60,486 nucleotides of DNA, filler included, from a bacterium UBP13_UBA5359 (GCA_002410925.1; 4 parts of 4 records of this genome joined end to end with filler, not necessarily neighbours in it); one strand, 5' to 3'; shown: positions 4,075 to 53,053, counted from the first letter of the whole stretch. Numbers and translations: made by a program. The notes: generated by a model not told the origin, from the letters alone.

Positions 4075-4149
4075 AGATGGGAAGGTTCTCTATGAGAGAA
4101 TTGCCTGATCGTATACAAAAAATTAACCGATGGCTGGAAAAGGCGGGGC

Positions 4150-5259: not shown

Positions 5260-6578
5260 ATGATGTCCTGGTTATAGGAGGAGGCATAGCAGGGTTGGCA
5301 GCGGCTATGGAACTTGCCGAGCAGGGGTATTCAGTTGTAGTGTATGAGAAGGAGCCTGTTTTGGGCGGATTGGCAGCTGCCGTTGAATTTGATGGTCGTA
5401 TCATCGATAAGTACTATCATTTTCTCTGTGGCGGTGATGATGACTGGGTGAAACTCTGTCGGCGGCTGGGAATAGAAGACCGGCTTGAATGGAGGGCTTC
5501 GCATACCAGCATCTTTTACAACGGCAGGTTATATCCCTTTGCCACTGCGCTTGACCTGCTCTGCTTCAGTCCGGTTGATATTCTTGGCCGCATAAGGATT
5601 GGAATAAATGCTCTTTCTTCCAGATTTATAGATGATTGGAGAGGGCTGGACGGCATCACTGCTAAAGAATGGCTTATCTCGCGTATGGGATTGCAGACGT
5701 ATGAAGTAATCTGGGAGCCCTTGCTGAGGATCAAATTTGGACATTGCCATGAACAAATTTCAGCAGCCTGGATCTGGCATCGTATATTTCGTTTGGCGGA
5801 GTCCAGAAAGGGAATTTTTAAGTATGAAAGGCTCGGATATTTGCAAGGCGGCATGCAGACTCTCTGGCGGGCGCTTCTATCTCGTATAGAAAGTCTGGGC
5901 GGAAAGGTAATTACCGGAGCGGCGGTTGATGGTATAATAGCTGATGGCGACAGGGTGGCTGGCGTTATTGTCGGTAAAGAAGTGGTATCTGCCCGGGCGG
6001 TGCTGTCGGCTGTTCCGTTGCCCGTACTGGCAGGGCTGTTGCCGGCCGGTCAGAGGGAGTTTGCGGATAAGCTGTGCGCTATAGATTTTATTGGCGTTGT
6101 TTGTGCTGTGTTGAAGATAAAAGGCAGATTGACGGATAGCTTCTGGATAAATACCAATGATCCCGGGATAGCTTTTAATGGCTTTATCGAATATTCCAAT
6201 CTCAATCCCGGATTCTTTGGCGATGGTTCGGGCGCTGTATATGTGCCTTTTTATCTTGAGGCTGATTCTGATCGCTTCAACAGAAGCGATAAATCGCTGA
6301 TTGAAGAGTACGTTGGGGCGTTGGGCAGAGTGCGGCCTGGTTTTAGCGCTGATGATGTGGAGGTGGCGGCGGTTTATCGTGACCGCTATGCGCAGGCGGT
6401 ATGCACTGCCGGCTTTGCCGGTAAAGTACCGCCGCATGCCGCTCCGCTGAAAGGCCTGTATCTGATAGATTCTACGCAGCTCTATCCTTCGGACAGGACG
6501 GTCAGCGGCACAATAGGGCTGGCCCATGATGCTGTGGCAATTATGAGCCGGTGGATGACTGAAGGAGGGATAGAATGA
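5256..6578 (+). CDS. FAD-dependent oxidoreductase (HemY/amine oxidase-like)
   Basis: GGGIAGLAAA..YEKEPVLGGLA dinucleotide fold; coupled to rmlB. Confidence 0.8.
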   Translation: MNDVLVIGGGIAGLAAAMELAEQGYSVVVYEKEPVLGGLAAAVEFDGRIIDKYYHFLCGGDDDWVKLCRRLGIEDRLEWRASHTSIFYNGRLYPFATALDLLCFSPVDILGRIRIGINALSSRFIDDWRGLDGITAKEWLISRMGLQTYEVIWEPLLRIKFGHCHEQISAAWIWHRIFRLAESRKGIFKYERLGYLQGGMQTLWRALLSRIESLGGKVITGAAVDGIIADGDRVAGVIVGKEVVSARAVLSAVPLPVLAGLLPAGQREFADKLCAIDFIGVVCAVLKIKGRLTDSFWINTNDPGIAFNGFIEYSNLNPGFFGDGSGAVYVPFYLEADSDRFNRSDKSLIEEYVGALGRVRPGFSADDVEVAAVYRDRYAQAVCTAGFAGKVPPHAAPLKGLYLIDSTQLYPSDRTVSGTIGLAHDAVAIMSRWMTEGGIE

Positions 6579-14016: not shown

Positions 14017-14116
14017 NNNNNNNNNNNNNNNNNNNNNNNNNNNNNNNNNNNNNNNNNNNNTTAATTAATTAANNNNNNNNNNNNNNNNNNNNNNNNNNNN
14101 NNNNNNNNNNNNNNNN
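14017..14116. other. Artificial contig-join linker
   Basis: N run with central TTAATTAATTAA (stops in all frames). Confidence 0.95.
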
Positions 14117-31499: not shown

Positions 31500-31847
31500 G
31501 GGGGCGACAGGTATCGACGGGAAGTGATGGGGTCGGAGTAGCGAGTCGAGGTTCCATAAGCTCGTTAAACTGTGGGAAAACTATAAACGCCAACGATAAT
31601 TTGGCTCTGGCCGCTTAATATAAGCGCCTGTCCTTCCGGCTACGTCGATCGGGCCGAGCGGGGCATCAACTAAGATCGACTACCCAAAGGCCCATTCCTG
31701 TAAGCCCGAGGGGAATTTTACAGGATAGCTGTAGTTCTATCCCGCCTGCGGGAGCGGACAAGGCGAAACTCAAAGCGCAGGATACACTCGTAGAAGCTCC
31801 GATGACAGCCTTTTCGGACAGGGGTTCGAATCCCCTCGCCTCCACCA
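31500..31847 (+). ncRNA. ssrA: tmRNA; tag peptide (A)ANDNLALAA coded at 31589-31618
   Basis: GGGGGCG acceptor with G3.U pair, GGTTCGAATCCCCTCGCCTCCACCA 3' end, tag frame ending LAA-TAA. Confidence 0.96.
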
Positions 31848-35822: not shown

Positions 35823-36690
35823 AATCATCAACAGAGGGACAGGCCTGCTTTTAATTGATGTGACCAATTCAAACCCCAACGGGGATCCCGACCGCGAAAA
35901 CGATCCCCGAACCAGGCAAGACGGACGGGGAGAGATTTCTCCGGTCTCTTTTAAGAGGAAGCTGCGCGATCTGGTGGAAGCCAAGGATTCGCCTCTTTGG
36001 AAGGAATTGGCGGAAGAGCTGAATTTGCCGGAAGAAGGCTTCGGTATATTTGAAACCAACACGGTGAAATTTGCCGACTTGATCAATATGAAGACCGAAG
36101 ATTTTCTCAGCCAGTATTGGGACGCTCGAGTGTTTGGAGCTACAGTGCTAGAAAAAAAAGATGATGACAGTAAAAACAAGCACATTGCTTCCGGCGTAGT
36201 TCAGTTTGGATTAGGCGTTTCTGTCGATCCTGTTAAAATTGAACGTCTTTCAACTACTAAAGTCATAAACGAAGGGGAAAACAAAAGCAAAAAAATGGGA
36301 CCACTCGCATACCGAGTTATCTCCTATGGCTTGTATGCTATGCCGTTTTTTATCAATGCAACGGCGGCGCAAAAAACTCGTTGCACGAAAAAAGATATTG
36401 AACTGCTTCTGCGGCTGATCCCCCATGCGTACAAAGAGACAGCCTCATATGTTCGTCCGCAGGTGGATATCCGATACGCATTCTATGTGGAGCATAACCG
36501 CGCTCGTGGTACTTATAACGATTTTCGCATCATCGAGGCGCTTACCCCCGTTCGAATAGCGGGTGGAACCGGCCCGGCTACATCCTGGAAAGAGTATGAT
36601 GAAGCGGCGTTTCAACAAAGTATCGCACAGCTCAATGAAAAGCTGGACGGAAAAACCGCCCCCGTGGCGGATCTGACGGAAACTTTATGA
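35815..36690 (+). CDS. cas7: CRISPR-associated Cas7 (Csd2-like)
   Basis: NSNPNGDPD..PR, SFKRKLRD, WDARVFGAT, GVVQFG. Confidence 0.92.
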   Translation: MSEIINRGTGLLLIDVTNSNPNGDPDRENDPRTRQDGRGEISPVSFKRKLRDLVEAKDSPLWKELAEELNLPEEGFGIFETNTVKFADLINMKTEDFLSQYWDARVFGATVLEKKDDDSKNKHIASGVVQFGLGVSVDPVKIERLSTTKVINEGENKSKKMGPLAYRVISYGLYAMPFFINATAAQKTRCTKKDIELLLRLIPHAYKETASYVRPQVDIRYAFYVEHNRARGTYNDFRIIEALTPVRIAGGTGPATSWKEYDEAAFQQSIAQLNEKLDGKTAPVADLTETL

Positions 36691-38840
36691 TTCCGCTTGC
36701 ACACAGTGCCCGAGGCGGCAGGCCGGCACAATCCTACCGTGCCCATGTACGCGGGGTAATCAAAAAGGTGCACGAAAATTTGGAGGCAATAGCTCCGTAT
36801 ATCGCCAAAGAGAAGGCTGAGCTTTATGGAGAGATTCTGAATCCGGCGGCAGTGCTTCATGATGTGGGCAAGCTGGCAGGGGAAAATCAAGATGTCCTTT
36901 ACGGAAAGAAACAAGCGAAAAGGCTTCCAATTGAGCATCGGGACGCAGGTGCAAAATATTTGTTGAGAGACCAGCCGGAATGTCCGGAGGCTACTCTGGT
37001 ATACTCGCATCACCGCCCGGGACTGCCGAATATGTCTGCGCAAAAAATTGCAGATTCGCCTTTCCGTTTTTTGACCGCCATGTCCGACACTGACAAAAAC
37101 CTCTGCAAATATCTGCAAATTCATGCTGAAGAGATTGGCAAGCTTCCGCCACCCACTGATAAAAAAGCGGCAAAGCTTTCAGCACTAGAATACCGCATTC
37201 TGCTGAGCTGTCTGGTGGACGCCGACTATTCGGATACAGCCGGTGAACAGCCGGCAGGTGCGGAAGCGCGCTGGGAAGAACGGGGGCTTCGATTGGACAG
37301 GTATGTTCAGAACTTGCAAGATCACGCAGAGCAAGAGAGCGAACGCAGCCGTCTGCGTAACTTTCTCTATTACAACTGCAAAGGCACCGCAACAGACGCC
37401 GTGATGGAATACTGCGACAGTCCTGTAGGTACAGGGAAAACCACGGCAGTCATGGCGCATATGCTAAAGGCTGCGCAGGCGCATCATCTGCGGCACATTT
37501 TCGTGGTATTGCCATACACCAATATCATCTCCCAGACGGTGGAGGTACTCAGGAAAGCTGTTGTGCTGGACGATGAGGATCCTGAAGAAGTTATGGCCGA
37601 GCACCATCATCAGGCGGATTTTGAGAATCTCGAGTATCGGCGTCTGGCGGCGACCTGGACAGCTCCCATTATTGTCACCACGGCGGTTCAATTCTTTGAG
37701 ACGTTGGCCGGAAATCTTCCGGCTAAGCTGCGCAAGCTGCACCAGCTTCCAGGCAGCGGCGTCATTTTTGATGAGTACCACGCCGCTTTGCCTGCCGGTC
37801 TGATGCTGCCCGCATGGAAATGGATGACCGAACTCGCATCTCGATGGACATGCCGTATCTGTATGTGTTCCGCCACAACGGTAAAATTCTGGGAGAATCC
37901 TGCCTTTCAAAAACAGGCTCGGCTGTGTGCCTTACCCTTGCTGCCTCCAGGGATTTTGGAAAACCTGAACGTCTTTGAGCAATCAAGGATTGACCTGAAT
38001 GCATGGAGTGGCAGTATTCCGCATTTTCATGGAGCGGCGGAACTTGTGACATACCTGAATAATTATCATGGTTCTAAAATCGTCGTGCTGAACACCGTCC
38101 AATCCGCCGCATCTTTTGCCCAATTTTTACGTCAGCAGGGATGCGATGTATTGCATCTTTCCTCTGCCCTCACACCGGAGGATAAAGAATGCACGATGGC
38201 CGAGATTGAGCGAAGGCTGTGTTCCCAATCGGAATCCCTCAAAGATTGGACGCTGGTGGCCACAAGCTGCGTAGAATGCGGTATGGATTTTTCATTCCGC
38301 TACGGCTTTTGCGAGCTGTGTTCCCTGCAAAGTTACATTCAGTTGAGCGGGCGTATTCGTAGAAACAGCGAGAAAGAATATGGGGATGCAGTGCTGGTTG
38401 CATTTACGATTGCAGAGGACAATTTCACTGCTAATCCAAGCTTCAAAGATTCAAAACATGTATTTGAGAAAATGATTTCTTCCGGAAGGCTTCCTGCCCT
38501 ATCCATCACCGAAGCGATCACGGAAGCATTTCAAGAGGAATGCAAGATGCGCGGGGTATTGTTGGAAGAGATCTGCAAAGCCGATCGCCTACACGAATTT
38601 GAAATCGTTGCCCAAAAGTTTCGTGTGATTGACGAAGAAACGATGACCGTTGTGGCCGGAAAAACGCTTATCGCAAAAATTCAAGCAGGTGAACAGGTTT
38701 CCTCCAAAGAGTTTCAAAGAGGCAGCGTCAACCTTCGCAAGAGTGTTTTGACCCGACTTGGGCTGTCCGACAGCGAATTACCTATGCTTTCAGATTTGCA
38801 GTATGACGCCTTTCTCGGATATATGAAGGATCTGATATAA
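36687..38840 (+). CDS. cas3: Cas3 HD nuclease-SF2 helicase
   Basis: LAHS, LHDVGK, SCLVDAD, PVGTGKT, DEYH, SAT, QLSGRIRR. Confidence 0.92.
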   Translation: MIPLAHSARGGRPAQSYRAHVRGVIKKVHENLEAIAPYIAKEKAELYGEILNPAAVLHDVGKLAGENQDVLYGKKQAKRLPIEHRDAGAKYLLRDQPECPEATLVYSHHRPGLPNMSAQKIADSPFRFLTAMSDTDKNLCKYLQIHAEEIGKLPPPTDKKAAKLSALEYRILLSCLVDADYSDTAGEQPAGAEARWEERGLRLDRYVQNLQDHAEQESERSRLRNFLYYNCKGTATDAVMEYCDSPVGTGKTTAVMAHMLKAAQAHHLRHIFVVLPYTNIISQTVEVLRKAVVLDDEDPEEVMAEHHHQADFENLEYRRLAATWTAPIIVTTAVQFFETLAGNLPAKLRKLHQLPGSGVIFDEYHAALPAGLMLPAWKWMTELASRWTCRICMCSATTVKFWENPAFQKQARLCALPLLPPGILENLNVFEQSRIDLNAWSGSIPHFHGAAELVTYLNNYHGSKIVVLNTVQSAASFAQFLRQQGCDVLHLSSALTPEDKECTMAEIERRLCSQSESLKDWTLVATSCVECGMDFSFRYGFCELCSLQSYIQLSGRIRRNSEKEYGDAVLVAFTIAEDNFTANPSFKDSKHVFEKMISSGRLPALSITEAITEAFQEECKMRGVLLEEICKADRLHEFEIVAQKFRVIDEETMTVVAGKTLIAKIQAGEQVSSKEFQRGSVNLRKSVLTRLGLSDSELPMLSDLQYDAFLGYMKDLI

Positions 38841-39170
38841 AAATCTAATTAAATCGATGAGAGGTATCTGATTTATGAAAAGTACTTAATCTTTGGCTGT
38901 CAAATCTGACTTATCAGTTTGACCATGAGCGTTATATGGGCTGAGTGTTGGCATCTATATTCATCTAACTTTCCAAATCAAATCCATCATTGACAAAAAA
39001 TATTTTCACCAGACGGCTTTATTTGGCCTTGAAATGCCTGAAAAAGTGATCTTCGAAAATCTTCGGGAATCGCGGTTACAATTTTTGGGACTATCGTCGT
39101 TAATTTTTGTCTCATGCCGATGCTTGAAACTGGAAGTATTTTTTTATAACCATTTGGTTTTTTGCGCTTG

Positions 39171-39591
39171 TTCGATCTGACTTTAATCGCCAGAGCATCC
39201 ACTAGCACGAAAGGGTACTCCTGCCCGCTAAGATCTCTTCCGTTCCAGACTTCCACCAGCGGGTCCAGCTTCTTGTATAGATGAGATACCGTTGATTTGG
39301 GGAACTCTGTTCCGCATAACTCCTCGACAATGGTATTGACCTTACAGATGGACACTTCGCTGACCGCCCTCTCTATCAAAGACAGTACCAGAGCTTGTTC
39401 GCTTCTTTGTATTCTCTTGAACAGCTCCGAAGAGAAGCTACCGTTTCTCAACTCTGGAATACTCAACTTCCGGCTGCGATAGCCGTTACGATACCCTGGT
39501 CTGTTTTTGTCCTTTCATAAGGCGTAGCCCCGACGTATTCTTGTGCCGAGCCGGCAATATCTGGTTTAGCACATTTTTCAACAGCCTGGCC
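39171..39591 (-). pseudogene. IS256-family transposase remnant (frameshifted, truncated)
   Basis: ARLLKNVLNQIL, IPELRNGSFSSELF, RSEQALV, VEELCGTEFPKSTVS, YPFVLVDA. Confidence 0.82.
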
Positions 39592-39776: not shown

Positions 39777-39876
39777 NNNNNNNNNNNNNNNNNNNNNNNN
39801 NNNNNNNNNNNNNNNNNNNNTTAATTAATTAANNNNNNNNNNNNNNNNNNNNNNNNNNNNNNNNNNNNNNNNNNNN
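39777..39876. other. Artificial contig-join linker
   Basis: N run with TTAATTAATTAA. Confidence 0.95.
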
Positions 39877-39903
39877 CCGGCTCAGGCCGAGGAGGAAGAG
39901 TGA

Positions 39904-40530
39904 GTGTTAGGACGGAGTTTGCGTAAGTATTTTCTTACGGGATTAGGCATATTGCTGCCATTGGTTATCACGGTTTACGTTATAACCGTAGTCTTTTCTC
40001 TGATAGGCGGGCCGCTGGGGCGCATCTTTGCTCTTTTTCATCTGCCACCTTTTCTGGCTACGCCGGCCGGGTTTATTACCACGCTGGCATTGATAGCGGC
40101 AGTCGGCTTTATTGCTACCAATGTTTTCGGGCGCCAATTACTGCTGACGATAGAAACGGTGCTGAACGGTTTGCCTTTGGCAAAGAATGTTTATGCGCCT
40201 ACCAAGCAGTTGGTGGAGTTTCTCTTTTCAGATAAAACAGCAGCATTCAAGCGAGTGGCCTTAGTGGAATATCCGCGTAAGGGTGTTTATACCATAGGCT
40301 TTATTACCGGCGACGGCATAGAGGAGATAAAGCAGAAAAAAGAGGCCGATATAGTGAGCGTTTTTCTGCCAACCACCCCAAATCCTACCTCGGGCTGGCT
40401 TGTATTGTTGCCGCGTGATGAAGTTATGCTGCTGGAAATGACTGTTGAAGACGGCTTGAAATTTGTTGTTTCCGGCGGTGTTCTATCGCCTTCGTGGAAG
40501 TCGTCAGCGAGAAGCATTGCCGTAGATTAA
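39904..40530 (+). CDS. DUF502 membrane protein
   Basis: FLTGL..LLPLVIT, VEYPRKG, FLPTTPNPTSG. Confidence 0.9.
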   Translation: MLGRSLRKYFLTGLGILLPLVITVYVITVVFSLIGGPLGRIFALFHLPPFLATPAGFITTLALIAAVGFIATNVFGRQLLLTIETVLNGLPLAKNVYAPTKQLVEFLFSDKTAAFKRVALVEYPRKGVYTIGFITGDGIEEIKQKKEADIVSVFLPTTPNPTSGWLVLLPRDEVMLLEMTVEDGLKFVVSGGVLSPSWKSSARSIAVD

Positions 40531-41594
40531 TCAGCTTCCGGATAGGAGCCGAGGATCTTTATAAAGAGCGCATGCTCTTTCATTTCCTTGAGGGATTCTA
40601 CTATATCCGGATATGTATGATGCCCTTGGACATCTATAAAGAAGATATATTCCCAGGGGCGTTTTTTTGTAGGACGTGATTCTATCATAGTCATATTGAC
40701 TGCATGCCTTTCAAAGGGATGCAATGCCTTATAGAGAGCGCCGGCCTGGTGCCGGACAGAAAAGATTATAGAAGTTTTATCGCGCCCGCTGGCCTCTGTC
40801 AGCGGAGTGTGACTTATGACCAGGAAACGTGTTCGATTGCTGGAACTATCTTCAATATGTTCCGCCAGAATGTTAAGACCGAAATGGTTGGCTGCCAGCT
40901 TGCCGGCAACAGCCGCACTACAGGAATCAGCCGCCGCACACTCAGCTGCTCTGGCATTGCTGTAAACTTCGCAAAGCTCTATCCCGGGGAGGTTCTTTCT
41001 CAGCCATGTTCTACATTGCGCCTCTGTCTGGGGATGTATATAGAGCTTTGTAACCTTTTCGATATCCGTTGTGGATAGAAGATGGTGCGTTACCTCTACA
41101 AACAGCTCGCCGCATATTGCCAAATCAGAATCCACAAACCTGTCTAACGTATGGTTTACCACTCCCTCGGTTGAGTTCTCAACGGGAACTACTCCGTAAT
41201 CCGCTCTTCGTTTCTCCACCATAGAAAATACAGAATCGATGGAATCGCAGGGAAGCAATGAAGCACCGTTGCCGAAGTGCTGCAGACATGCCATATGCGT
41301 AAAGGTAGTCTGAGGCCCCAGGTAGGCTACCTGTAATGGCTGTTCGAGAGCGAGCGTAGCGGACATGACCTCTTTGTAGATACTTTGCAGGGCTTTGTCC
41401 GGTAACGGACCTTGATTGAGATCGGTTATCCGGTTATAGACCTGCTTCTCTCTTACCGGATCATAAAAGCTCTTCATTCCGGCCTGAGCCTTGATTTTAG
41501 CGATATCAACAGCTATGGAGGCTCTGCGACTCAGAAGTTGTATGATATTCTCGTCCAGAGTATCGATTTTTTTTCGTAATTCTTCAAGACTCAT
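40527..41594 (-). CDS. pheA: Chorismate mutase/prephenate dehydratase
   Basis: LRKKIDTLD CM domain, PVENSTEG, NRTRF, IESRP, LGSYP. Confidence 0.95.
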   Translation of the reverse strand: MSLEELRKKIDTLDENIIQLLSRRASIAVDIAKIKAQAGMKSFYDPVREKQVYNRITDLNQGPLPDKALQSIYKEVMSATLALEQPLQVAYLGPQTTFTHMACLQHFGNGASLLPCDSIDSVFSMVEKRRADYGVVPVENSTEGVVNHTLDRFVDSDLAICGELFVEVTHHLLSTTDIEKVTKLYIHPQTEAQCRTWLRKNLPGIELCEVYSNARAAECAAADSCSAAVAGKLAANHFGLNILAEHIEDSSSNRTRFLVISHTPLTEASGRDKTSIIFSVRHQAGALYKALHPFERHAVNMTMIESRPTKKRPWEYIFFIDVQGHHTYPDIVESLKEMKEHALFIKILGSYPEAD

Positions 41595-41730
41595 AGCAAC
41601 TTAAATATATATTATGAACCGATTGCCGTCAACATCTACAAACCAAGCGGAAATATATGGTATAATGTTGGCGTTCAGGTAGCGGACAGAAAGCTGTCCG
41701 AATATTTTTGTTATAGGAGGTGATATCCCC

Positions 41731-42582
41731 TTGCTTTTAAAAGATTGGTTTGCCAAGAGACCAAGATATTCGTCTACGGGCCTTGAAAACAGCCGTTCGA
41801 GAGTCCCTGATGGCTTGATGACCAAATGTCCTGGTTGCGAGGATGCGATATATAATAAGGAACTGGAAAAGAGCCTTAAGGTTTGCCCCAAATGCTCTTA
41901 TCACTTTCGTCTTTCAGCCAGAGAGCGCCTGGATATCACCATAGAGGCAGGATCTCTGGAGGAATATGATAGCGATATGTTATCTGTAAATCCATTGGAT
42001 TTTCCTGAATACGAGGATAAGCTTATCAAAAGCAGGCATAAAACCGGTCAGATTGATGCCGTTATAACGGGCCAGGCATCCGTTGCAGGATACAGGACAG
42101 TAATTGCCGTGACAGATTTTGCCTTCATGGGTGGGAGTATGGGGTCGGTTGTAGGTGAAAAGGTTGTAGCGGCTATGGAAAGAGCTGTTGATTACAGGCT
42201 GCCGATGCTTGTCATATCTGCTTCCGGGGGAGGCGCCAGAATGCAGGAAGGCATTCTCTCTCTGATGCAGATGGCCAAGACCGGTGCCGCTGTAGCCAAG
42301 TTACGAGAAGCCGAACTGCCTTATATCGTTATTTTGACCGATCCTACCATGGGGGGTGTGGCTGCCAGCTTTGCTTCACTGGGGGATGTCATAATAGCCG
42401 AGCCGGGAGCGCTTATAGGCTTTGCCGGTCCTAGAGTTATTGAACAAACTATACGACAGAAGCTGCCGGAGGGCTTTCAACGCTCTGAATTTCAACTTAA
42501 ACACGGATTTGTGGATATTATCGCTGCGCGTAAAGATATGGTTGCTACTCTAGCGATGTTGTACAGCTTTTATCTGGATTGA
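41731..42582 (+). CDS. accD: Acetyl-CoA carboxylase carboxyltransferase beta
   Basis: KCPGC..CPKC zinc finger, FMGGSMG, GGARMQEG, GFAGPRVIEQT. Confidence 0.96.
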   Translation: MLLKDWFAKRPRYSSTGLENSRSRVPDGLMTKCPGCEDAIYNKELEKSLKVCPKCSYHFRLSARERLDITIEAGSLEEYDSDMLSVNPLDFPEYEDKLIKSRHKTGQIDAVITGQASVAGYRTVIAVTDFAFMGGSMGSVVGEKVVAAMERAVDYRLPMLVISASGGGARMQEGILSLMQMAKTGAAVAKLREAELPYIVILTDPTMGGVAASFASLGDVIIAEPGALIGFAGPRVIEQTIRQKLPEGFQRSEFQLKHGFVDIIAARKDMVATLAMLYSFYLD

Positions 42583-42594
42583 GGTGGCTTTTAT

Positions 42595-43557
42595 ATGGTT
42601 GGATTGATGGAGATAGAGAGGCCTGTCAAGGAGCTTGAAGGTAAGATAGCTGAATTGAAGAACCTTGCTGAAACAGAGAAGATAGATCTTAGCGATCAGA
42701 TAAGCACTCTGGAAGAGAGAGCCGAAAAGCTTAAGAAACGTCTTTATAAAAATCTTACGCCCTGGCAGAAAACTCAAATGGCCCGGCATCCGATGCGTCC
42801 TTATACGCTTGATTATGCTCAGGCTTTATTTGATGAATATATTGAGTTGCATGGCGATCGTTGCTGTGGAGATGATAAATCGATTGTCGGCGGTTTTGCA
42901 AAGCTGGATGGCAGGCCGGTAATCTTTATCGGCCATCAAAAAGGGCGCAATACGAGAGAAAATATCGAGCGTAACTTTGGCTCTGCTCATCCTGAGGGAT
43001 ATCGCAAGGCAATGCGGCTAATGGAACAGGCCGAACGCTTCAAACGGCCGATATTGACATTTATCGATACCCAGGGAGCTTTTTGCGGCATAGGGGCAGA
43101 GGAGAGGGGGCAGAGCGAAGCCATAGCCAGTAGTCTTTGCTTTATGTCACGGTTGAAAACTCCAATTATTGCCGTGATAATAGGCGAAGGCGGAAGTGGA
43201 GGCGCCATAGGCCTGGGCGTCGGCAATCGTATACTCATGCTTGAAAACTCCGTATACTCGGTTATTTCTCCTGAGGGTTGCGCCGCCATTCTCTGGAAAG
43301 ATGCCGGAAGAGCGCGTGAGGCTGCCGAGATATTAAAACTGACAGCGAGTGATCTTAAGCAATTGGGCGTTATCGATGAAATAATTCCCGAGCCAATCGG
43401 CGGGGCGCATAATGATTACGAAAAAACGATAGCCGCGGTAAAAAGGGCTATCAAACGTCATCTAAGCGAGCTATCGGTTATGTCCGCTGAAGAACTGGTT
43501 GCGAATCGTTATGATAAGTTCAAGCGTATGGGTGTTGTAGGCTCTATTATGCCCTGA
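42595..43557 (+). CDS. accA: Acetyl-CoA carboxylase carboxyltransferase alpha
   Basis: ARHPMRP, PEGYRKA, GEGGSGGA, SPEGCAAILW. Confidence 0.96.
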   Translation: MVGLMEIERPVKELEGKIAELKNLAETEKIDLSDQISTLEERAEKLKKRLYKNLTPWQKTQMARHPMRPYTLDYAQALFDEYIELHGDRCCGDDKSIVGGFAKLDGRPVIFIGHQKGRNTRENIERNFGSAHPEGYRKAMRLMEQAERFKRPILTFIDTQGAFCGIGAEERGQSEAIASSLCFMSRLKTPIIAVIIGEGGSGGAIGLGVGNRILMLENSVYSVISPEGCAAILWKDAGRAREAAEILKLTASDLKQLGVIDEIIPEPIGGAHNDYEKTIAAVKRAIKRHLSELSVMSAEELVANRYDKFKRMGVVGSIMP

Positions 43558-43700
43558 TACAGTCTGTATAAGTCGTAGCGGCCATAGCTGTTGTCTTGTC
43601 TTTTGCCAGAGGCTGTGCTAATATACTGTTTTGGGCGGAAGTGTTGATATGCGTCAGCTTTCTTTCTTTTTGTTCAATATAATTCACCGTGAGGTAAAGA

Positions 43701-44663
43701 GTGAAACAGATAGGCCTGTTAACTAGCGGCGGAGACGCCCCGGGTATGAATGCCGCCATTAGAGCCGTGGTCAGATCAGCAATATATAATGGTCTTAAAG
43801 TAACGGGAATAGAACGCGGCTATGCAGGTCTCCTCTGCCAGGAGATGCGACCGATGAATCTGGCATCCGTCGGCGGAATTATCAACAGAGGCGGCACCAT
43901 ACTGCAATCATCGCGTTCGCCGGAGTTCCGTGCCCCGGAAGGACAGAAAAAGGCAGTCGATATACTTAAAAGCAACAGCATAGACGGGTTAGTTGTTATA
44001 GGCGGAGATGGCTCTTTTCATGGCGCCGATGCTCTTTACCGCAATTGGGGCTTTCCAACAATCGGCATTCCCGGTTCTATAGATAATGATATATCCTGCA
44101 CGGATTATTCCATAGGCTTCGATACCGCTGTCAATACCGCTCTGGAAATAATCGATAAGCTGCGCGATACCGCAGATTCGCACGAGAGAATATTCGTTGT
44201 CGAGGTTATGGGTAGAGAGAAGGGATGTATAGCTCTTGAGGTCGGTCTCTCCGGTGGCGCGGAAGCTATTCTTCTGCCGGAGATGGAATATTGCCCGGAA
44301 AAAATTGCACAGCGTTTGCGTGCCGGGTATAAGCGCGGCAAGCTCTCGAGTATAATAGTTGTTGCCGAGGGAGCCTGCTCAGCCGTTAAGGTAGCTTCCG
44401 AAATCGGAAAACTTACAGGCTTTGAAACGCGTGTCAGTGTTCTCGGTCATGTTCAGCGCGGAGGCTCGCCTACGGCACTTGACCGAATACTGGCAAGCCG
44501 TTTTGGAGCGGCTGCCGTCAAGGGATTGATAAATGGCGATCATGGTTGTATGGTCGGCATAATATCGGATAAAATTGTATATAGCAAGCTTAGCAAAGCA
44601 TGGGAGCATGAGGAGAAAATTAATATGGATGATTACCATTTAGCGGAGATATTGGCTATATAG
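43701..44663 (+). CDS. pfkA: ATP-dependent 6-phosphofructokinase
   Basis: TSGGDAPGMN, GGDGS, SIDND, EVMGR, LGHVQRGG. Confidence 0.96.
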   Translation: MKQIGLLTSGGDAPGMNAAIRAVVRSAIYNGLKVTGIERGYAGLLCQEMRPMNLASVGGIINRGGTILQSSRSPEFRAPEGQKKAVDILKSNSIDGLVVIGGDGSFHGADALYRNWGFPTIGIPGSIDNDISCTDYSIGFDTAVNTALEIIDKLRDTADSHERIFVVEVMGREKGCIALEVGLSGGAEAILLPEMEYCPEKIAQRLRAGYKRGKLSSIIVVAEGACSAVKVASEIGKLTGFETRVSVLGHVQRGGSPTALDRILASRFGAAAVKGLINGDHGCMVGIISDKIVYSKLSKAWEHEEKINMDDYHLAEILAI

Positions 44664-44728
44664 TCGATTTTATCTGCAGGGCAATCAGAAGGAAAGCCTT
44701 GATTGGCAATTATATGGAGTATGGAACT

Positions 44729-46303
44729 ATGGCAAAGCTGAATTTTGTAGAAATAAGACGAGCGTTGGTGAGTGTATCCGATAAGGAGGGCATAATCGAT
44801 TTTGCTCGTGTTTTGAAGGATTTTAATGTGGAGATTATTTCCACCGGGGGGACTGCCAGGGCGTTGAAGGAGGCAGGCATACCTGTGATAGGCATATCCG
44901 ATATTACAGGATTTCCGGAAATGATGGATGGTAGGGTTAAAACGCTGCATCCTAGAGTTCACGGAGGATTGCTGGCCAGAAGGGATAACCCGGAGCATAT
45001 GAATGCTTTACAGGAGCACGGCATACCGGCGATTGATATGGTAGTGGTCAATCTCTATCCCTTTGCTCGGACGGTAGCCAGAGAAGGCGTGTCTCTGGAA
45101 GAAGCAATAGAGAATATCGATATCGGCGGCCCCTCCATGATACGTTCGGCAGCTAAGAATTTTGCCGGCGTTGCCGTTGTGGTTGATCCTTCACGCTATG
45201 CCGAAATAGCTGAAGAACTCAAAGCCAATAAAGGTGCATTAAGTTATGGAACAAGGGAGAAGCTTGCTGTAGAGGCTTTTAATCATACAGCCGCTTATGA
45301 TGGTATGATTTTCAGGTATCTGAGCGGGCGTAAAGAGGTAAGCCATCCTGAATTTCCAAAGCAATTGCCTCTTTCTCTGACAAAGATACAGGATCTTCGC
45401 TACGGCGAGAATCCTCATCAGAGTGCCGCCTTTTACGCAGAAGGCAGTTCTTCGGAGCCTTCAGTAGCTAATGCAAAGCAGCTCTGGGGCAAGGAACTCT
45501 CTTTTAATAATATTATCGACATAGATGCAGCCCTGGAAATAATCAAGGACTTTACCGAGCCGGCGGCAGTGGTAATCAAGCATACCAATCCCTGTGGAAC
45601 GGCGATAGCCGATAATATTACCGAAGCTTATAAGCGTGCTTATGCTGCTGATTCGCTATCGGCATTTGGCGGTATAGTCGGGCTGAGTATGCCTGTGGAT
45701 GTAGATACGGCCAATGAACTGACCAGCACCTTTTTGGAAGCCGTAATTGCTCCGGGATATTTGCCCGAGGCGCTGGAAGTGTTGAAAACGAAGAAGAATC
45801 TCCGGATTTTGAGCGTTACTGATTGGAAAAAAGGATATACTCCAAGCGGATTTGATATAAAGAAGGTTACCGGAGGCATGCTGATACAGGACCGTGATAC
45901 ATTAATTTTTGATAGATCGGCTGCAAAGGTTGTTACCGAAGCTCAACCCGATGAACGTGACTGGTGTGATCTGGCTTTTGCCTGGAAGATGGTAAAGCAT
46001 CTTAAATCCAATGCCATTCTTCTAGCGGCCGACGGCGTTACCGTTGGCGTAGGGGTAGGCCAGATGAGCCGAGTGGACGCCGCTGAGCTGGCTGTTAAAA
46101 AAGCTCAGGGGCGGGCAGAGGGAGCAGTTATGGCTTCCGATGCCTTCTTCCCCTTTCGGGATGCAATCGATGCCGCAGCTGCCGCGGGAATAAGAGCCAT
46201 AATTCAGCCCGGCGGTTCCATTCGTGATGAGGAAGTCATTGCTGCTGCCAATGAGCATGGGATAACGATGGTTTTCACCGGCTACAGGCATTTCAAGCAT
46301 TGA
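44729..46303 (+). CDS. purH: AICAR transformylase/IMP cyclohydrolase
   Basis: SVSDK, STGGT, GRVKTLHP, LRYGENPHQ, ASDAFFPF, RHFKH. Confidence 0.97.
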   Translation: MAKLNFVEIRRALVSVSDKEGIIDFARVLKDFNVEIISTGGTARALKEAGIPVIGISDITGFPEMMDGRVKTLHPRVHGGLLARRDNPEHMNALQEHGIPAIDMVVVNLYPFARTVAREGVSLEEAIENIDIGGPSMIRSAAKNFAGVAVVVDPSRYAEIAEELKANKGALSYGTREKLAVEAFNHTAAYDGMIFRYLSGRKEVSHPEFPKQLPLSLTKIQDLRYGENPHQSAAFYAEGSSSEPSVANAKQLWGKELSFNNIIDIDAALEIIKDFTEPAAVVIKHTNPCGTAIADNITEAYKRAYAADSLSAFGGIVGLSMPVDVDTANELTSTFLEAVIAPGYLPEALEVLKTKKNLRILSVTDWKKGYTPSGFDIKKVTGGMLIQDRDTLIFDRSAAKVVTEAQPDERDWCDLAFAWKMVKHLKSNAILLAADGVTVGVGVGQMSRVDAAELAVKKAQGRAEGAVMASDAFFPFRDAIDAAAAAGIRAIIQPGGSIRDEEVIAAANEHGITMVFTGYRHFKH

Positions 46304-46407
46304 TATGCCCTGATGACAAAGATTTTGTCAGGTATGGAAGGGCTGTTGCCCGTTTAAGAGCTTTAACGCAGGCTTTAACGCAGGTATGTTTCTTGCAATT
46401 ACAATAG

Positions 46408-47755
<1,348 letters not shown>

Positions 47756-47779
47756 TATCAATGGTTTTCCTCTAAAAAC

Positions 47780-47855
47780 GGGCCGTTAGCTCAGTCGGTA
47801 GAGCAGCGGACTTTTAATCCGCGTGTCACAGGTTCGATTCCTGTACGGCTCACCA
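47780..47855 (+). tRNA. tRNA-Lys(UUU)
   Basis: 76-nt cloverleaf, GCGGA-CTTTTAA-TCCGC anticodon arm, GGTTCGA T-loop, CCA end. Confidence 0.97.
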
Positions 47856-47870
47856 AATTTTTCCAGTATT

Positions 47871-47908
47871 AATGCGGGTTTCCAGACTTTAAGGGGACCC
47901 GCATTTTT
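47871..47908 (+). terminator. Terminator after tRNA-Lys
   Basis: AATGCGGGTTTCC/GGGGACCCGCATT stem plus T run. Confidence 0.65.
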
Positions 47909-48292
47909 CGTTAAAAGGGCAATCTTCAGCCCATTTTCAGCCCAAATTTTTCAAACCCATTTTAAAGAGTGAAAAGAACAAAAGTTATCTACCGTAGAAA
48001 CCGGATAGACCCGTTAGGGTGTGTTTATAGGGAGGAGGGACCCCCCCACTTATGCACAATGGTTTTTTCGTATACCCTGAATAAAATGGATACAGTATCC
48101 CCTAAAAAATGTAACCCCGATCCACGTTTGGTATGGGGGGCAGAAGCTTCGAAGGCTTCAAATTTCCGCTTCAGAAATTCATCTCATAGCGGCAGACAAA
48201 ATATACCTATATTCGACCAAAAACATACCATAATTATCACATAAACAGCATAAGATTATACCAAGATTTTACTATAACCCACCGACAACCCC

Positions 48293-48619
48293 TTAACCGG
48301 ACTTCTGAGCGGTCTTGTCCATGGCTTTCTGCAACGACGCGTCAAGTTTATCTACCGCCTCCTGTTGCAGGCCCCGGCTGACGTGCGAATACAAATCAAG
48401 CGTGATAGCTATGCTGGAATGTCAAAGACGCTCACTCACTATTTTAGGATTTGTGCCTCCCCGCATAAGCTGGGTGGCATGTGAATGCCGCAAATCATGG
48501 AATCTTACACCAGGCATACCGGCTCTCTTTACCAGATAGCGAAAACTGCTGCTGAGGGCATCGGGCGGCCAGGGGTTCCCATCGGGAAGAGCACAGGCCA
48601 GATCGTTATCAACGTACAA
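48293..48619 (-). pseudogene. Phage/ICE tyrosine integrase C-terminal remnant
   Basis: RFHDLRHSHAT..VSERL*HSSIAITLDLYSHV; TGA at the G of LGH; N-terminus missing. Confidence 0.85.
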
Positions 48620-48980
48620 AAGGGCTGCCTTGTACAGCTACAGAGGCTTTAAAGCTGTACAGGGCATTGTAGCGCTTCGTCTCTTATGCTAAATTGAGTT
48701 GTGGAGGTTGATCACAATGTCGTTACTGCTTCTCGGCAGCAGCGCCCATGAAGTAACGATATACCGCAAGCCACATCACGGCCTTATGTTTCCCTTCGAG
48801 ATGGAGGCTTACGAATACGACGCCAGGCGGGAGAAAGAGCGCTTCAATCGCGGGAAGGCTCAAAGGTATGTGACTGAACAATGCGGCAAAGGTACAGTGA
48901 TGCCGAATTATTAAGCCTATAGCCAAGAGCCTGTTTGCTTAATGCTTATCGCGGGTCATCTTGTTATACAGAGGGTAAGA

Positions 48981-49268
48981 ATGGGAAAGAATAAAGAGTT
49001 TGAAGCTCTCAAAGTTGAATATTTAGAAGGCTTAATGGAATTGGGAGAGCTAACCGCTTACATGATAAAAGTCGTGGAGCGGGAGGAGCACTCTGTAACT
49101 ATACGATATCAGATTCGAGCGCTCTTAGAGGAGTTTCTGCGAAGGGTACCGAAATTAAGCAGTAGGATTGAAAAGGCTGAAGATTTGGAAGATATAAGAG
49201 AAGTAGACAGAGTGTTACGGCAACAGAGGCACTACTTGAAAAACGAAGTAATGAACATTTACTACTGA
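48981..49268 (+). CDS. Hypothetical helical protein (95 aa)
   Basis: GAGGG RBS; charged amphipathic sequence; upstream of the peptide cluster. Confidence 0.55.
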   Translation: MGKNKEFEALKVEYLEGLMELGELTAYMIKVVEREEHSVTIRYQIRALLEEFLRRVPKLSSRIEKAEDLEDIREVDRVLRQQRHYLKNEVMNIYY

Positions 49269-49285
49269 AGGGAGTTGCCTGGATT

Positions 49286-49462
49286 ATGGCTAAGCTGTTA
49301 AGCAGAGCTAAAGCAGAGCCGATAGGGAAAAGAACTCATAAGCGTAACGGTTCGGTTATGCCTGCGGAACTGAGAATTGCATTCAAGCGGATGGATGCTA
49401 TTTGTGACCGGTTACATGGTCGTGTAGAGGAATACAGCAGGAAGCATTCGTCCAAACCGTAA
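49286..49462 (+). CDS. Small peptide A (58 aa)
   Basis: MAKLL..MPAELRIAFKRMDAICDRLHGRVEEYSRKHSSKP; paralog at 49786. Confidence 0.7.
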   Translation: MAKLLSRAKAEPIGKRTHKRNGSVMPAELRIAFKRMDAICDRLHGRVEEYSRKHSSKP

Positions 49463-49629
49463 TGGCCGGCGGAGATAACGAATCTATGCGTGCAACACGT
49501 GGATACGGGCGCCGGGCCGTTGTTTCTGATGAACTGCGGGACACGGTAAAGAAAATGCGTAATGCCAGCAATAGATTCAATGCCATTGTAAAAGATATGA
49601 GCAAGGAGTTCGGCGAAGATAAAGGATGA
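49462..49629 (+). CDS. Small peptide B (55 aa)
   Basis: TAATG coupling; AVVSDELRDTVKKMRNASNRFNA; paralog at 49634. Confidence 0.7.
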   Translation: MAGGDNESMRATRGYGRRAVVSDELRDTVKKMRNASNRFNAIVKDMSKEFGEDKG

Positions 49630-49633
49630 ACTT

Positions 49634-49789
49634 ATGCCTGTGAATCTTAGAGCAGCCTCTTCTGCCGGTGCTGGCTATAGCTACAAAAAGGCCGTCGTTT
49701 CCGAGGAGCTGCGGGAAACGGTAAAGAAGATGCGCATAGTAAGCGATAGGTTCAATGCCAGAATCAGAGCAGCAGAGAAGAAGGCATGA
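49634..49789 (+). CDS. Small peptide B' (51 aa)
   Basis: AVVSEELRETVKKMRIVSDRFNA. Confidence 0.7.
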   Translation: MPVNLRAASSAGAGYSYKKAVVSEELRETVKKMRIVSDRFNARIRAAEKKA

Positions 49790-49899
49790 AGAACATGCCG
49801 GCTAAACTGCGAATTGCTTTCAAGAAGATGGATGCCATTTGTGATAGGCTCCATGGCAGAGTGCAGGAGTATAGCAGGAAGCATTCCGGCAAGTCCTAA
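49786..49899 (+). CDS. Small peptide A' (37 aa)
   Basis: ATGA coupling; MPAKLRIAFKKMDAICDRLHGRVQEYSRKHS. Confidence 0.7.
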   Translation: MKNMPAKLRIAFKKMDAICDRLHGRVQEYSRKHSGKS

Positions 49900-49952
49900 A
49901 GGTTCATGGTAAGTTAATTTGCGTTACTACCCCCGGCGGTTTCGACCCTGGG

Positions 49953-49986
49953 GCGCGAGGCCTCGAAAGGGGCCTCCGCTTTTTAT
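49953..49986 (+). terminator. Intrinsic terminator after the peptide cluster
   Basis: GAGGCCTC-GAAA-GGGGCCTC stem then TTTTTAT. Confidence 0.7.
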
Positions 49987-50045
49987 CCCGGCATGTTATG
50001 TCGATAGCTGGCCGGGATGGAGCTTGTGATGAGAGGTGCAAAGGG

Positions 50046-50393
50046 ATGGATAACATGGAGAATACTTCGGGACAGGGGGCAGGTGTGATTGTCCCATACG
50101 AAGTGAGGAAATGGAACGGAGGCTGGAACTGGGGCGCGTTCTGGTTTGAATGGCTATGGGGGATAAATCATAACGTTTGGATATCGCTTCTTACCCTTAT
50201 CCCTTATGTGAATCTTGTGATGGCGATAGTTCTTGGTATCAAAGGTAATGAATGGGCTTGGCAACAGCGTAGATGGGATAGCGTGGAACAGTTCCAGAGA
50301 ACGCAAAGGATATGGAGTAACTGGGGGCTTGGTATTTTTATCGCCGTGTTCATAATAGTTATGGTGATTTGCTATATGGCGGGCAGCCAGTAA
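50046..50393 (+). CDS. Trp-rich small membrane protein
   Basis: GWNWGAF, KGNEWAW, QFQRTQRIW motifs, TM helices. Confidence 0.75.
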   Translation: MDNMENTSGQGAGVIVPYEVRKWNGGWNWGAFWFEWLWGINHNVWISLLTLIPYVNLVMAIVLGIKGNEWAWQQRRWDSVEQFQRTQRIWSNWGLGIFIAVFIIVMVICYMAGSQ

Positions 50394-50401
50394 TAGCATC
50401 C

Positions 50402-50700
50402 CTATACCGGCAAATACCTGGCAAAACTGTCGGTTGGCCGGGCGTGAAGATACCGGCTGGTAGTAGCCACTGAAGCATGTCCGAGCGTGGCTTGAACAAG
50501 GTGTATCGGGCAGCCGCGGTCAAGGGCATGACTTGCATGCGCATGACGCAGCCAGTGCGGGGAAACGTTCGTATCGATGCCTGCACGCTTGGCAGCGGCT
50601 CTGACAATCCGCATGACCTGTGATCTGTCCATGGGGCCGCCTTTCTGAGAACGAAAGACCGGTTCATCCTGAGTGGTATTACCACGTAAGGCAATGATCC
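50402..50700 (-). pseudogene. Tyrosine recombinase C-terminal fragment truncated at an IS3-like element
   Basis: PVFRSQKGG..SPHWLRHAHASHALD..LGHASVATTSRY. Confidence 0.85.
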
Positions 50701-50701
50701 T

Positions 50702-50919
50702 TAGAGTGTACCCGAAAGAGTGGAGACTTCAAGAGGCAAAGTGATAAAATAAGCCAAAGGGGGCCTTCAGGGCATGAGAAAAGGACAGAAACAAAATAAG
50801 TATACAACGGAGTTCAAGGAGAGGGCGGCTCTCGCTATACCCCAACGGAGCATGAAGAGTTAAAGGCTCTACTTAAAGAGAACCATCGATTGCGGGAAGA
50901 ACGTGACATCTTAAAAAAA
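50702..50919 (+). mobile_element. IS3-family left end and deleted orfA
   Basis: KYTTEFKERA then frameshift to ENHRLREERDILKK ending in an A run at the contig end. Confidence 0.75.
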
Positions 50920-51019
50920 NNNNNNNNNNNNNNNNNNNNNNNNNNNNNNNNNNNNNNNNNNNNTTAATTAATTAANNNNNNNNNNNNNNNNNNNNNNNNN
51001 NNNNNNNNNNNNNNNNNNN
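50920..51019. other. Artificial contig-join linker
   Basis: N run with TTAATTAATTAA. Confidence 0.95.
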
Positions 51020-51984: not shown

Positions 51985-53053
51985 ATGCAATTTAAAAAGA
52001 TATTGGAGCTTTTTGAACTGCCGTTGCCTCAGTTGGCTGTTTTGGCTGATGCATTACGCAGCCGGCATAACGACAATCTGCTTGAAACCTGTACCATATG
52101 TAACGTTAAATGCGGCAACTGCAGCGAGGACTGCAAGTTCTGTGCGCAATCAGTGCGGGGCAATACGGAGGTGGAGACTTACCCTCTGATTCCGGTGGGC
52201 GAGATGGTAGAGGCAGCTGATGCAGCGGCTGCTAACGGAGCTGATAGATTTGGCATAGTCACCAGCGGCAGGCGCCTTAACGATAAGGAGGGTAATGCGG
52301 TTTCTCAGGCNNNNNNNNNNNNNNNNNNNNNNNNNNNNNNNNNNNNNNNNNNNNNNNNNNNNNNNNNNNNNNNNNNNNNNNNNNNNNNNNNNNNNNNNNN
52401 NNNNNNNNNNNNNNNNNNNNNNNNNNNNNNNNNNNNNNNNNNNNNNNNNNNNNNNNNNNNNNNNNNNNNNNNNNNNNNNNNNNNNNNNNNNNNNNNNNNN
52501 NNNNNNNNNNNNNNNNNNNNNNNNNNNNNNNNNNNNNNNNNNNNNNNNNNNNNNNNNNNNNNNNNNNNNNNNNNNNNNNNNNNNNNNNNNNNNNTACTTT
52601 CCGCAGATAACATCCACCCATACTTTTGAGGATAGGCTTCGCACCATTGATCTGGCGCGAGAAGCCGGTTTGTCTATCTGCTGTGGCGGGATAATAGGGA
52701 TGGGCGAGAGCCGGGAAGATCGAGCACGGATGGCTCTGGAGCTGGCAAAAATAGCGCCGGATTCCATACCGGTGAATATTTTGATGCCCATACCGGGCAC
52801 ACCGTTGGAAAATTGTCGGCGAATAAGCATCAGCGAGGCATTAAGAACTATTGCCGTCTTCAGAATCGCCAATCCTATGGCCACCGTTCGCCTGGCAGCC
52901 GGAAGAGAGAGCTTTCTTGGTGATTTTATGGGTATGGCCTTCATGGCTGGTGCCAATGCTATGATGATCGGAGGTTATCTTACGCAGCGAGGACGGGCTG
53001 TTGAGAAAGATCAGGGGCTTATTCGAGAGGTGCTGGAGGCATGGAACGCATAG
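51985..53053 (+). CDS. bioB: Biotin synthase (interrupted by assembly gap 52311-52594)
   Basis: CSEDCKFCAQS, CCGGIIGMGES, PVNIL, RLAAGRE, GYLT. Confidence 0.93.

Follow-up and report, generated by a model that had tools for sequence, protein, structure and literature searches.

A group of four small open reading frames (ORFs) in UBP13_UBA5359, a draft bacterial genome (GCA_002410925.1), proved from codon substitution patterns to be real protein-coding genes under purifying selection. The window, meaning the whole 60,486-nt stretch of DNA analysed here, consists of draft contigs of this genome chained by N runs, and the four ORFs, called A, B, B′ and A′, lie at 49286-49899 on contig C33 (window 39877-50919). 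They make up the variable tail of a compact operon, in which a promoter is followed by orf65, a gene named up95 for its 95-aa product, the peptide array and a terminator. By analogy, the set is best read as resembling a toxin–antitoxin or chaperone–cargo pair on an integrative island, and it is quite possible, though we propose it tentatively, that up95 is the keeper of basic peptides which, when free, act on a conserved cellular target. An earlier sequence-only reading had described an expanded family of helical micro-proteins in a tRNA-Lys island; its ORF sizes, overlaps and terminator agreed with the rechecked coordinates and junctions, the tRNA-Lys gene is indeed there, and paralogy, selection and the B′ model bear out a family, with two subfamilies.

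Four small genes under purifying selection

The two A-type units share 29 of 34 core residues; 15 of their codon differences are synonymous and 5 are replacements, the very numbers of the hand count made when purifying selection was first suggested. By the Nei–Gojobori method, synonymous divergence (pS) was 0.77 (saturated) and nonsynonymous divergence (pN) 0.106, giving a pN/pS of 0.14 (Fisher p 5.8e-9); the sense frame was the best of six, and comparable skew was found in none of the other five. Omega between B and B′ was 0.36. Further comparisons came from G002, a genome of the same genus, and from four metagenome contigs that proved informative (L010 to L013), a fifth contig, L014, having only a remnant. 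The last 38 codons of B′ encode the same protein in five loci (window, L011, L012, L013 and G002), where 16 of the 17 variable DNA sites fall on codon position 3 and one on position 1, and where the sum over ten pairs amounts to 88 synonymous and 0 replacement differences. Peptide B had a pN/pS of 0.04-0.20 over three loci (window against L011 and L012), and A′ one of 0.21 over four loci, again with the sense frame as the best of six.

Long antisense ORFs cross the units (49398-49604 and 49681-49884), and over B′ an antisense frame with coinciding third positions mimics constraint, with a pN/pS of 0.07, which would suit a reading of the four ORFs as chance frames, pseudogene fragments of a longer gene or an antisense shadow. 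However, the antisense mirror frame of B′ has 12 replacements and stop codons, the sense frame has neither, and over A′ constraint is absent from every antisense frame, indicating that the sense peptides are the object of selection. The sense frame was the best of six in both tests, and four further loci have the units as individual small ORFs, each retaining its own start and stop. A longer known repeat protein, of which the units might be fragments, was also sought, and neither the ORF-independent pattern scans nor the own genome gave a longer homolog, the only long frame being a fusion in G002 described below. The non-gene reading, already contradicted by these results, is scarcely credible. 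At position 49795, the contig of one public run has C for A, which changes Met4 of A′ to Leu, the residue present at this position in all other loci (MKNLPAE...). No part of bacterial genomes is less well charted than proteins below 60 aa, and most micro-protein candidates of this size are indistinguishable from noise. The coding status is unusually clear here.

The four peptides probably belong together. Tblastn aligned A with A′ at 88% identity over 33 residues (E 1e-16) and B with B′ at 55% identity (E 1e-7). In the gapless register of A-type on B-type units, which had been noticed by eye, the observed match was reached by 0 of 1000 shuffles for A-B′, 4 of 1000 for A-B, 2 of 1000 for A′-B and 0 of 1000 for A′-B′, and hhalign comparison of the A and B subfamily alignments gave probabilities of 68-70% (E 4e-5 to 4.8e-5). 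Because both the shuffles and the profile–profile comparison exceed chance, the common motif is real, and there is moderate support for A-type and B-type units as distant paralogs of one small family. No further paralogs were detected in the own genome by tblastn. In the window, B′ opens with MPVNLR, copied from the MPAELR with which the A core begins (direct repeat D3), and the first peptide after up95 carries the leader M-x-K/R-L/M-L-S/K-...-A-E-P-x-G, whichever core follows. All are basic (net charge +3 to +9) and hydrophilic, with a grand average of hydropathy (GRAVY) of -0.47 to -1.05, and their hydrophobic residues occupy a 4-3-4-3 seam, L-x3-V/F-x2-M-x3-S/C-x2-F/L-x3-I/V. As for the amphipathic helix proposed earlier, the helix itself appears in the B′ model (residues 24-50), while the amphipathicity turned out to be moderate, with hydrophobic moments of 0.42-0.54 that 5 to 158 of 2000 shuffles equalled.

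The positions of the operon and its flanks are collected in the table below. The peptide genes are joined by TAATG (A/B), a 4-bp gap (B/B′) and ATGA (B′/A′), and the terminator is kept in L009/L016 and L012 and inside the aligned blocks of L011 and L013. Upstream of orf65, the putative promoter is followed by a Shine–Dalgarno (SD) sequence, GGAGG, at 48703-48707 before the orf65 start. The promoter/SD block (48667-48707) is nearly invariant between the window and L013, with flanking DNA only about 73% identical, and we read it as the promoter and ribosome-binding site of the operon, although a simple consensus promoter scan missed the promoter. An inverted repeat, at which a minus-strand terminator-like site was called, ends 1 nt upstream of the putative -35; it might serve as an operator, or else as terminator for the minus-strand gene upstream. 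The first gene, orf65 (pN/pS 0.41), has a homolog of 57% identity at the same position in L013 and a C-terminal tail of one in L011, without matches in Pfam and PHROGs.

Features of the operon and its flanks (window positions)
Feature	Position	Strand	Basis
tRNA-Lys (UUU), integration site	47780..47855	+	ARAGORN; Rfam 72.8 bits
Tyrosine recombinase fragment (integrase remnant 1)	48422..48619	-	Pfam Phage_integrase E 3.2e-7
Inverted repeat, 14-nt arms 93% complementary, 13-nt spacer	48626..48666	.	repeat search
Putative promoter TTGTAG, 17 nt, TGcTAAATT (extended -10)	48667..48695	+	read from sequence
orf65, 65 aa, first operon gene, in no known family	48717..48914	+	homologs in L013, L011
up95, 95 aa, predicted three-helix bundle and A′ docking partner	48981..49268	+	AlphaFold2 (AF2), co-fold
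Peptide A, 58 aa, first-position leader and A-type helix core	49286..49462	+	
Peptide B, 55 aa, B-type core	49462..49629	+	
Peptide B′, 51 aa, most conserved unit	49634..49789	+	
Peptide A′, 37 aa, predicted docking on up95 helices 1 and 3	49786..49899	+	
Intrinsic terminator, 8-bp GC-rich stem and T-run	49957..49985	+	terminator scan
Second tyrosine recombinase, C-terminal fragment	50402..50632	-	Pfam E 6.1e-17

The own genome is a 2.25-Mb draft of 40 contigs (GC 0.49), and contig C33 stops 1 kb past the peptide cluster. Since N runs (14017-14116, 39777-39876, 50920-51019 and 52311-52594) lie between contigs, adjacency in the cell is not implied for a Cas3-like gene and the tRNA-Lys island, or for the island and the biotin genes. 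Directly past the terminator, a 131-aa ORF (49998-50393) with a Trp-rich stretch, WNWGAFWFEWLWG, and hydrophobic segments is present in L010 and not in the other related loci; it has no Pfam family above cutoff and looks like separate variable cargo. Elsewhere in the window, a tmRNA gene (31500-31847) encodes the tag peptide ANDNLALAA.

Array variants and the mobile-element setting

The order orf65, up95, A, B, B′, A′ is common to the window and L010, whose DNA is 98.7% identical. L011 has an up95 homolog, a 60-aa unit in which an A-type leader is fused to a B core, B′ and A′; L012 has an up95 homolog followed by B′, A′ and B; L013 has a 328-aa ORF, orf65, an up95 homolog, B′, A′ and the terminator; and G002 (contig C528, the same as L016) has an up95 homolog, B′, a truncated A′ fusion, the terminator and a full-length tyrosine integrase. 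Only a B′ remnant with an in-frame stop is left in L014. Homologs of up95 stand beside the peptides in every locus long enough (window, L010, L011, L012, L013 and G002). As the same block recurs in different versions, B′-A′ behind an up95 homolog is the constant core, around which additional A or B units vary. The differing number and order of units, together with chimeric units, indicate that the array is remodelled by recombination between units, and the compared arrangements demonstrate its plasticity, the chimeras being of the kind that unequal recombination leaves behind. In G002, A′ is cut after codon 26 and runs in frame into an unrelated 190-aa signal-peptide-like protein (L009/L016 3041-3697, minus strand), a fusion that is a recombination scar and not a natural long form.

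The operon is flanked in the window by two tyrosine-recombinase fragments (Pfam), and the counterpart of the second one is full length in G002 (297 aa), where this intact integrase adjoins an HTH_17 excisionase-like gene and a gene for a 232-aa ankyrin protein (Pfam Ank_2 E 6.9e-18) in the C528 element. The L011 cluster abuts a large serine recombinase gene that is 91% identical to one at the end of own-genome contig C23. L010 joins the tRNA-Lys 3′ half (from window 47811) to other DNA 5′ of the island, a junction that has the look of a second insertion at the tRNA-Lys site, and at the tRNA-Lys locus of G002 a truncated orf65 persists together with pieces of the 328-aa gene known from L013. 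These recombinases, the tRNA-half junction and the G002 remnants mark the operon as cargo of integrative elements that accumulate and decay at tRNA-Lys. GC is nearly the same in the island (0.477) and in the rest of the contig (0.479), hence there is no compositional signal of the island.

Several neighbours of these elements deserve mention in their own right. The 328-aa ORF of L013 (440-1426, 5′ of orf65) contains two similar Cys/Tyr/Gly-rich segments, ACNGYYDEAGTYNGHTYY and ACNGEYVEAGTDEGRPYY, without a family in Pfam or PHROGs. The tRNA-Lys island of G002 (L023, contig C72) encodes an 824-aa ankyrin-repeat protein at 3225-5699 with a signal-peptide-like N-terminus, as judged by eye only. 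Contig C23 of the own genome ends, in its last ~1 kb, in a regularly spaced repeat, preceded at ~2.3-4.0 kb from the end by the gene of a 582-aa large serine recombinase; with its recurring SDTTYKELK translation, the repeat is likely an array of clustered regularly interspaced short palindromic repeats (CRISPR). A Cas3-like helicase gene at window 36687-38840 (Pfam Cas3-like_C_2 E 2e-14, DEAD E 1.8e-10) adjoins a Mutator-family transposase fragment (38987-39466) at the end of contig C32.

Predicted docking and the roles it might allow

AlphaFold2 modelled up95 as a three-helix bundle (helices 2-35, 39-65 and 69-94) with a predicted local distance difference test (pLDDT) score of 89.6, and B′ as a disordered stretch (residues 1-23) followed by one helix (24-50, pLDDT ~90). 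Each peptide is therefore predicted to consist of a disordered, variable N-terminus and a basic helix of ~27 residues, from the model for B′ and from the motif for the others. Three chains (up95, B′ and A′) were then co-folded and A′ was scored, giving 0.85, 0.83 and 0.85 in three runs and 0.00, 0.00 and 0.02 in the controls. In the control that scored 0.02, A′ was retained and up95 exchanged, which means that the score depends on up95 rather than B′. Of 157 solved complexes, 116 attain the mark set for the co-fold, compared with 2 of 215 mismatched pairs; these counts apply only roughly to own alignments and to more than two chains. The runs share at least 95% of contacts, with a partner pLDDT of at least 79. 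Modelled A′ residues 2-33 run along up95 helices 1 and 3, and six of eight fixed motif positions (K7, L8, K14, M15, R21 and V26) lie in the modelled interface; the A′ seam is predicted to fit the groove between these two helices, forming a four-helix bundle. The partnership with the protein upstream of the array, suggested earlier, thus gains support from modelling (0.85 against a best control of 0.02). The idea that the peptide helices are copies of the helices of up95 itself was rejected (hhalign probability <1%).

Given this predicted docking, up95 could sequester the basic peptides in a four-helix bundle as an antitoxin-like or chaperone-like keeper, and the free peptides would be the active species, with nucleic acid or a conserved host protein as their target. 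Lying beside the recombinase genes of the element, such a module might serve element maintenance or host manipulation. We infer an external target because the B′ helix is invariant, while the up95 homologs have diverged to 33-44% identity and show no significant excess of conservation at their modelled interface. Several observations weigh against the keeper reading. B′ was present as a chain in the co-fold, yet it is not named in the interface, and only A′ was scored. The modelled interface of up95 has a mean BLOSUM score of 2.29 against 1.85 elsewhere (p 0.35). The acidity of up95 is weak (net -2, and +2 in the L011 homolog), so that it does not evidently neutralise the charge of the peptides. 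Pfam searches, which included the G002 element, revealed neither a zeta/PezT-like toxin nor any other known one, and neither up95 nor orf65 showed a DNA-binding domain that might serve autoregulation (Pfam and NCBIfam). Several toxin copies per keeper are unusual in toxin–antitoxin pairs. In addition, the likeness of the up95 model to the toxin-binding domain of PezA (2p5t_A; Z 11.3, root-mean-square deviation 1.4 over 81 residues), a weak lead in favour of the keeper, is within the range of unrelated helical bundles, below the value of about Z 13 where such bundles become meaningful.

The co-fold of A′ with up95 would be equally compatible with the opposite polarity, in which up95 or orf65 is the active or harmful product and the peptides are redundant small inhibitors folding onto it. 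Since spare copies of an inhibitor would be harmless, a variable copy number is in keeping with this arrangement; a disordered stretch leading into a helix, as in the B′ model, is typical of the toxin-binding parts of antitoxins, and two small antitoxins neutralise SpoIISA in the precedent described in PMC4803016. Nevertheless, the charges are distributed in the wrong way, the peptides being strongly basic and up95 near neutral, whereas it is usually the antitoxin that is acidic and the toxin that is basic. An invariant B′ beside up95 homologs of 33-44% identity is also hard to square with a B′ that only has to fit up95, and no catalytic site is apparent in a three-helix bundle of 95 aa. We therefore consider the reversed polarity unlikely.

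Alternatively, the peptides might work by themselves as host-directed factors (anti-defence, take-over or regulatory inhibitors), a single amphipathic helix binding a conserved host protein, with up95 unrelated to them or just a regulator. Phage lambda CIII, a protein of about 50 aa with a central helix, acts on FtsH through one amphipathic helix. An invariant B′ core among diverged neighbours points to a conserved external target, and the array is a variable one of small genes at a mobile-element edge, like the arrays of anti-CRISPR type, whose small genes also lie at element edges and vary in content between related elements. The Cas3 gene and CRISPR-like repeats of the host genome mean that targets for anti-defence exist. 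On the other hand, an up95 homolog is found in all loci that extend far enough, and the co-fold score depends on up95. Anti-defence loci are typically assorted, unrelated genes, whereas the units here are paralogs of one family, and their constant neighbour is a three-helix bundle instead of a helix-turn-helix (HTH) regulator, no HTH 'aca'-type gene being found in the operon in Pfam and NCBIfam. The likeness to CIII is functional only; Lambda_CIII or any other Pfam match is absent at E<=1 for the four peptides. It is, on balance, rather unlikely that the peptides act without up95, but if a conserved host protein does turn out to be their sole partner, its search would have a ready probe in the B′ helix, given the invariance of that helix.

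The peptides have a net charge of +3 to +9, and in G002, the window and L011 their genes adjoin recombinase genes of the tyrosine or serine type, towards which they converge. They could also be small basic factors by which the element binds nucleic acid, for example nucleoid-like proteins or cofactors of recombination directionality or copy control, and up95 would then be an assembly partner. However, no known DNA-binding fold was found, Pfam ribbon-helix-helix (RHH), HTH and Xis families giving nothing at E<=1, and the G002 element already has its separate HTH_17 excisionase-like gene. The RHH fold in particular was rejected, because the B′ model has no strand and a single helix at 24-50. Such a role appears quite improbable.

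Returning to up95 as the keeper, it might be speculated that the three-helix dock presents or buffers interchangeable host-targeted micro-proteins, that array shuffling retunes the effect of the element on its host, and that the device is specific to a deep, barely sampled phylum, a fuller picture to which we would give only a small chance. If the binder-plus-peptide arrangement is true, it would be a compact module with a recombining set of single-helix peptides in the charge of one small bundle protein, and would offer a first functional handle on the accessory genes of a phylum with three genomes. As a concrete partner, up95 comes with a specified predicted interface.

Distribution and nearest known systems

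The phylum as sampled comprises three genomes, all of one genus, and the up95 family was present in two of them, with no match in the third (99% complete). A HMMER search of 1.84 billion representative proteins with the up95 profile returned five matches, four of which are family clusters; the fifth, a 2048-aa protein matched in five stretches (44 bits), was taken as unrelated. Among 5.8 billion proteins, searched outside the 'longer' and 'shorter' length bands, A retrieved only A′, B′ two close relatives and up95 only itself. Pattern scans yielded one genome locus (G002) and six metagenome loci, one of them a remnant and one spurious (L015, inside an ORF of at least 195 aa). In viral contigs, the B profile matched 0 of 50 candidates, the up95 profile 0 of 103 and the A profile 1 of 29, the last one (L024) being spurious as well, antisense within a 456-aa ORF. 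Weak matches occurred in G008, G012, G020, G024 and G040 (E 0.1-0.8). Near-identical DNA was found in runs of four studies (fermentation, bioreactor, sludge and soil metagenomes), with no RNA run listed among the sequencing runs that contain the locus.

The family had not been recognised from sequence, and the searches agree with that: Pfam, PHROGs, PADLOC and NCBIfam name none of the six proteins (orf65, up95 and the four peptides), and the PDB search with three profiles gave nothing under E 0.049. MamL-1 (E 0.0088) and HisKA (E 0.13) were far under their cutoffs, and Cas11a (PADLOC) matched only one of four up95-family members (E 0.0085, 14.5 bits); all three were rejected. Foldseek against PDB and BFVD had no match at E<=0.001. 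In the ESM Atlas, the best score of up95 was 0.76, which is a lead only, and B′ was without usable match. Only the tRNA was matched in Rfam, and both peptide core strings were absent from searchable papers, supplements being outside that scope. The family is thus nearly an orphan, detected only in one genus of a barely sampled phylum and in four metagenome contigs, apart from the remnant in a fifth.

The multi-peptide leaderless bacteriocins share with the locus a tandem arrangement of three to four paralogous cationic peptide genes, as in the aureocin A70, garvicin KS and cereucins covered by the cited part of PMC6131525, and by that token the 37-58 aa peptides might be an antimicrobial with up95 as its immunity protein. 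The multi-peptide examples given there are shorter and more hydrophobic (30-34 aa, GRAVY +0.40 to +0.71), and the listed two- and multi-peptide leaderless bacteriocins together span -0.14 to +0.71, against -0.47 to -1.05 here. Moreover, the hydrophobic part of our peptides is a narrow seam and not a broad face, and a transporter gene is near the peptides in none of the loci. An antimicrobial role is accordingly very improbable.

Type II toxin–antitoxin systems resemble the operon in their overlapping genes, in one promoter block with a terminator and in the integrase setting; they differ from it in that no HTH, RHH, AbrB or Phd/YefM domain was found in orf65, up95 or the peptides (E<=1), and Pfam, NCBIfam and PADLOC assign none of the locus proteins to a known toxin family. 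According to the passages cited from PMC4803016, the epsilon antitoxin is a helical protein of ~90 aa that comes first in a compact mobile-element operon and neutralises its partner by binding to it directly, without a DNA-binding role, and PezA binds its toxin through a domain that forms a three-helix bundle. Unlike epsilon/zeta and PezAT, the operon from orf65 to A′ has up95 itself, at 95 aa, as its largest product, without a zeta/PezT kinase, and the partners here would be several copies of single-helix peptides of 37-58 aa. No sequence similarity of up95 to epsilon or PezA was found in the Pfam, NCBIfam and PDB searches.

In the SpoIISA-SpoIISB-SpoIISC system, too, a single partner gene is accompanied by several genes for small peptides, SpoIISB and SpoIISC each neutralising SpoIISA. 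Each of its genes has its own promoter, as stated in the same part of PMC4803016, whereas the window locus is one operon; no likeness in sequence appeared through the family libraries, SpoIISA being set apart without direct comparison. By analogy, then, the nearest structural echo of up95 would be the PezA/epsilon domain, and the nearest organisational echo SpoIISA with its two small antitoxins. The locus comes closest in kind to the small binder–ligand (toxin–antitoxin-like) modules of mobile elements, among which its recombining multi-peptide side is unusual.

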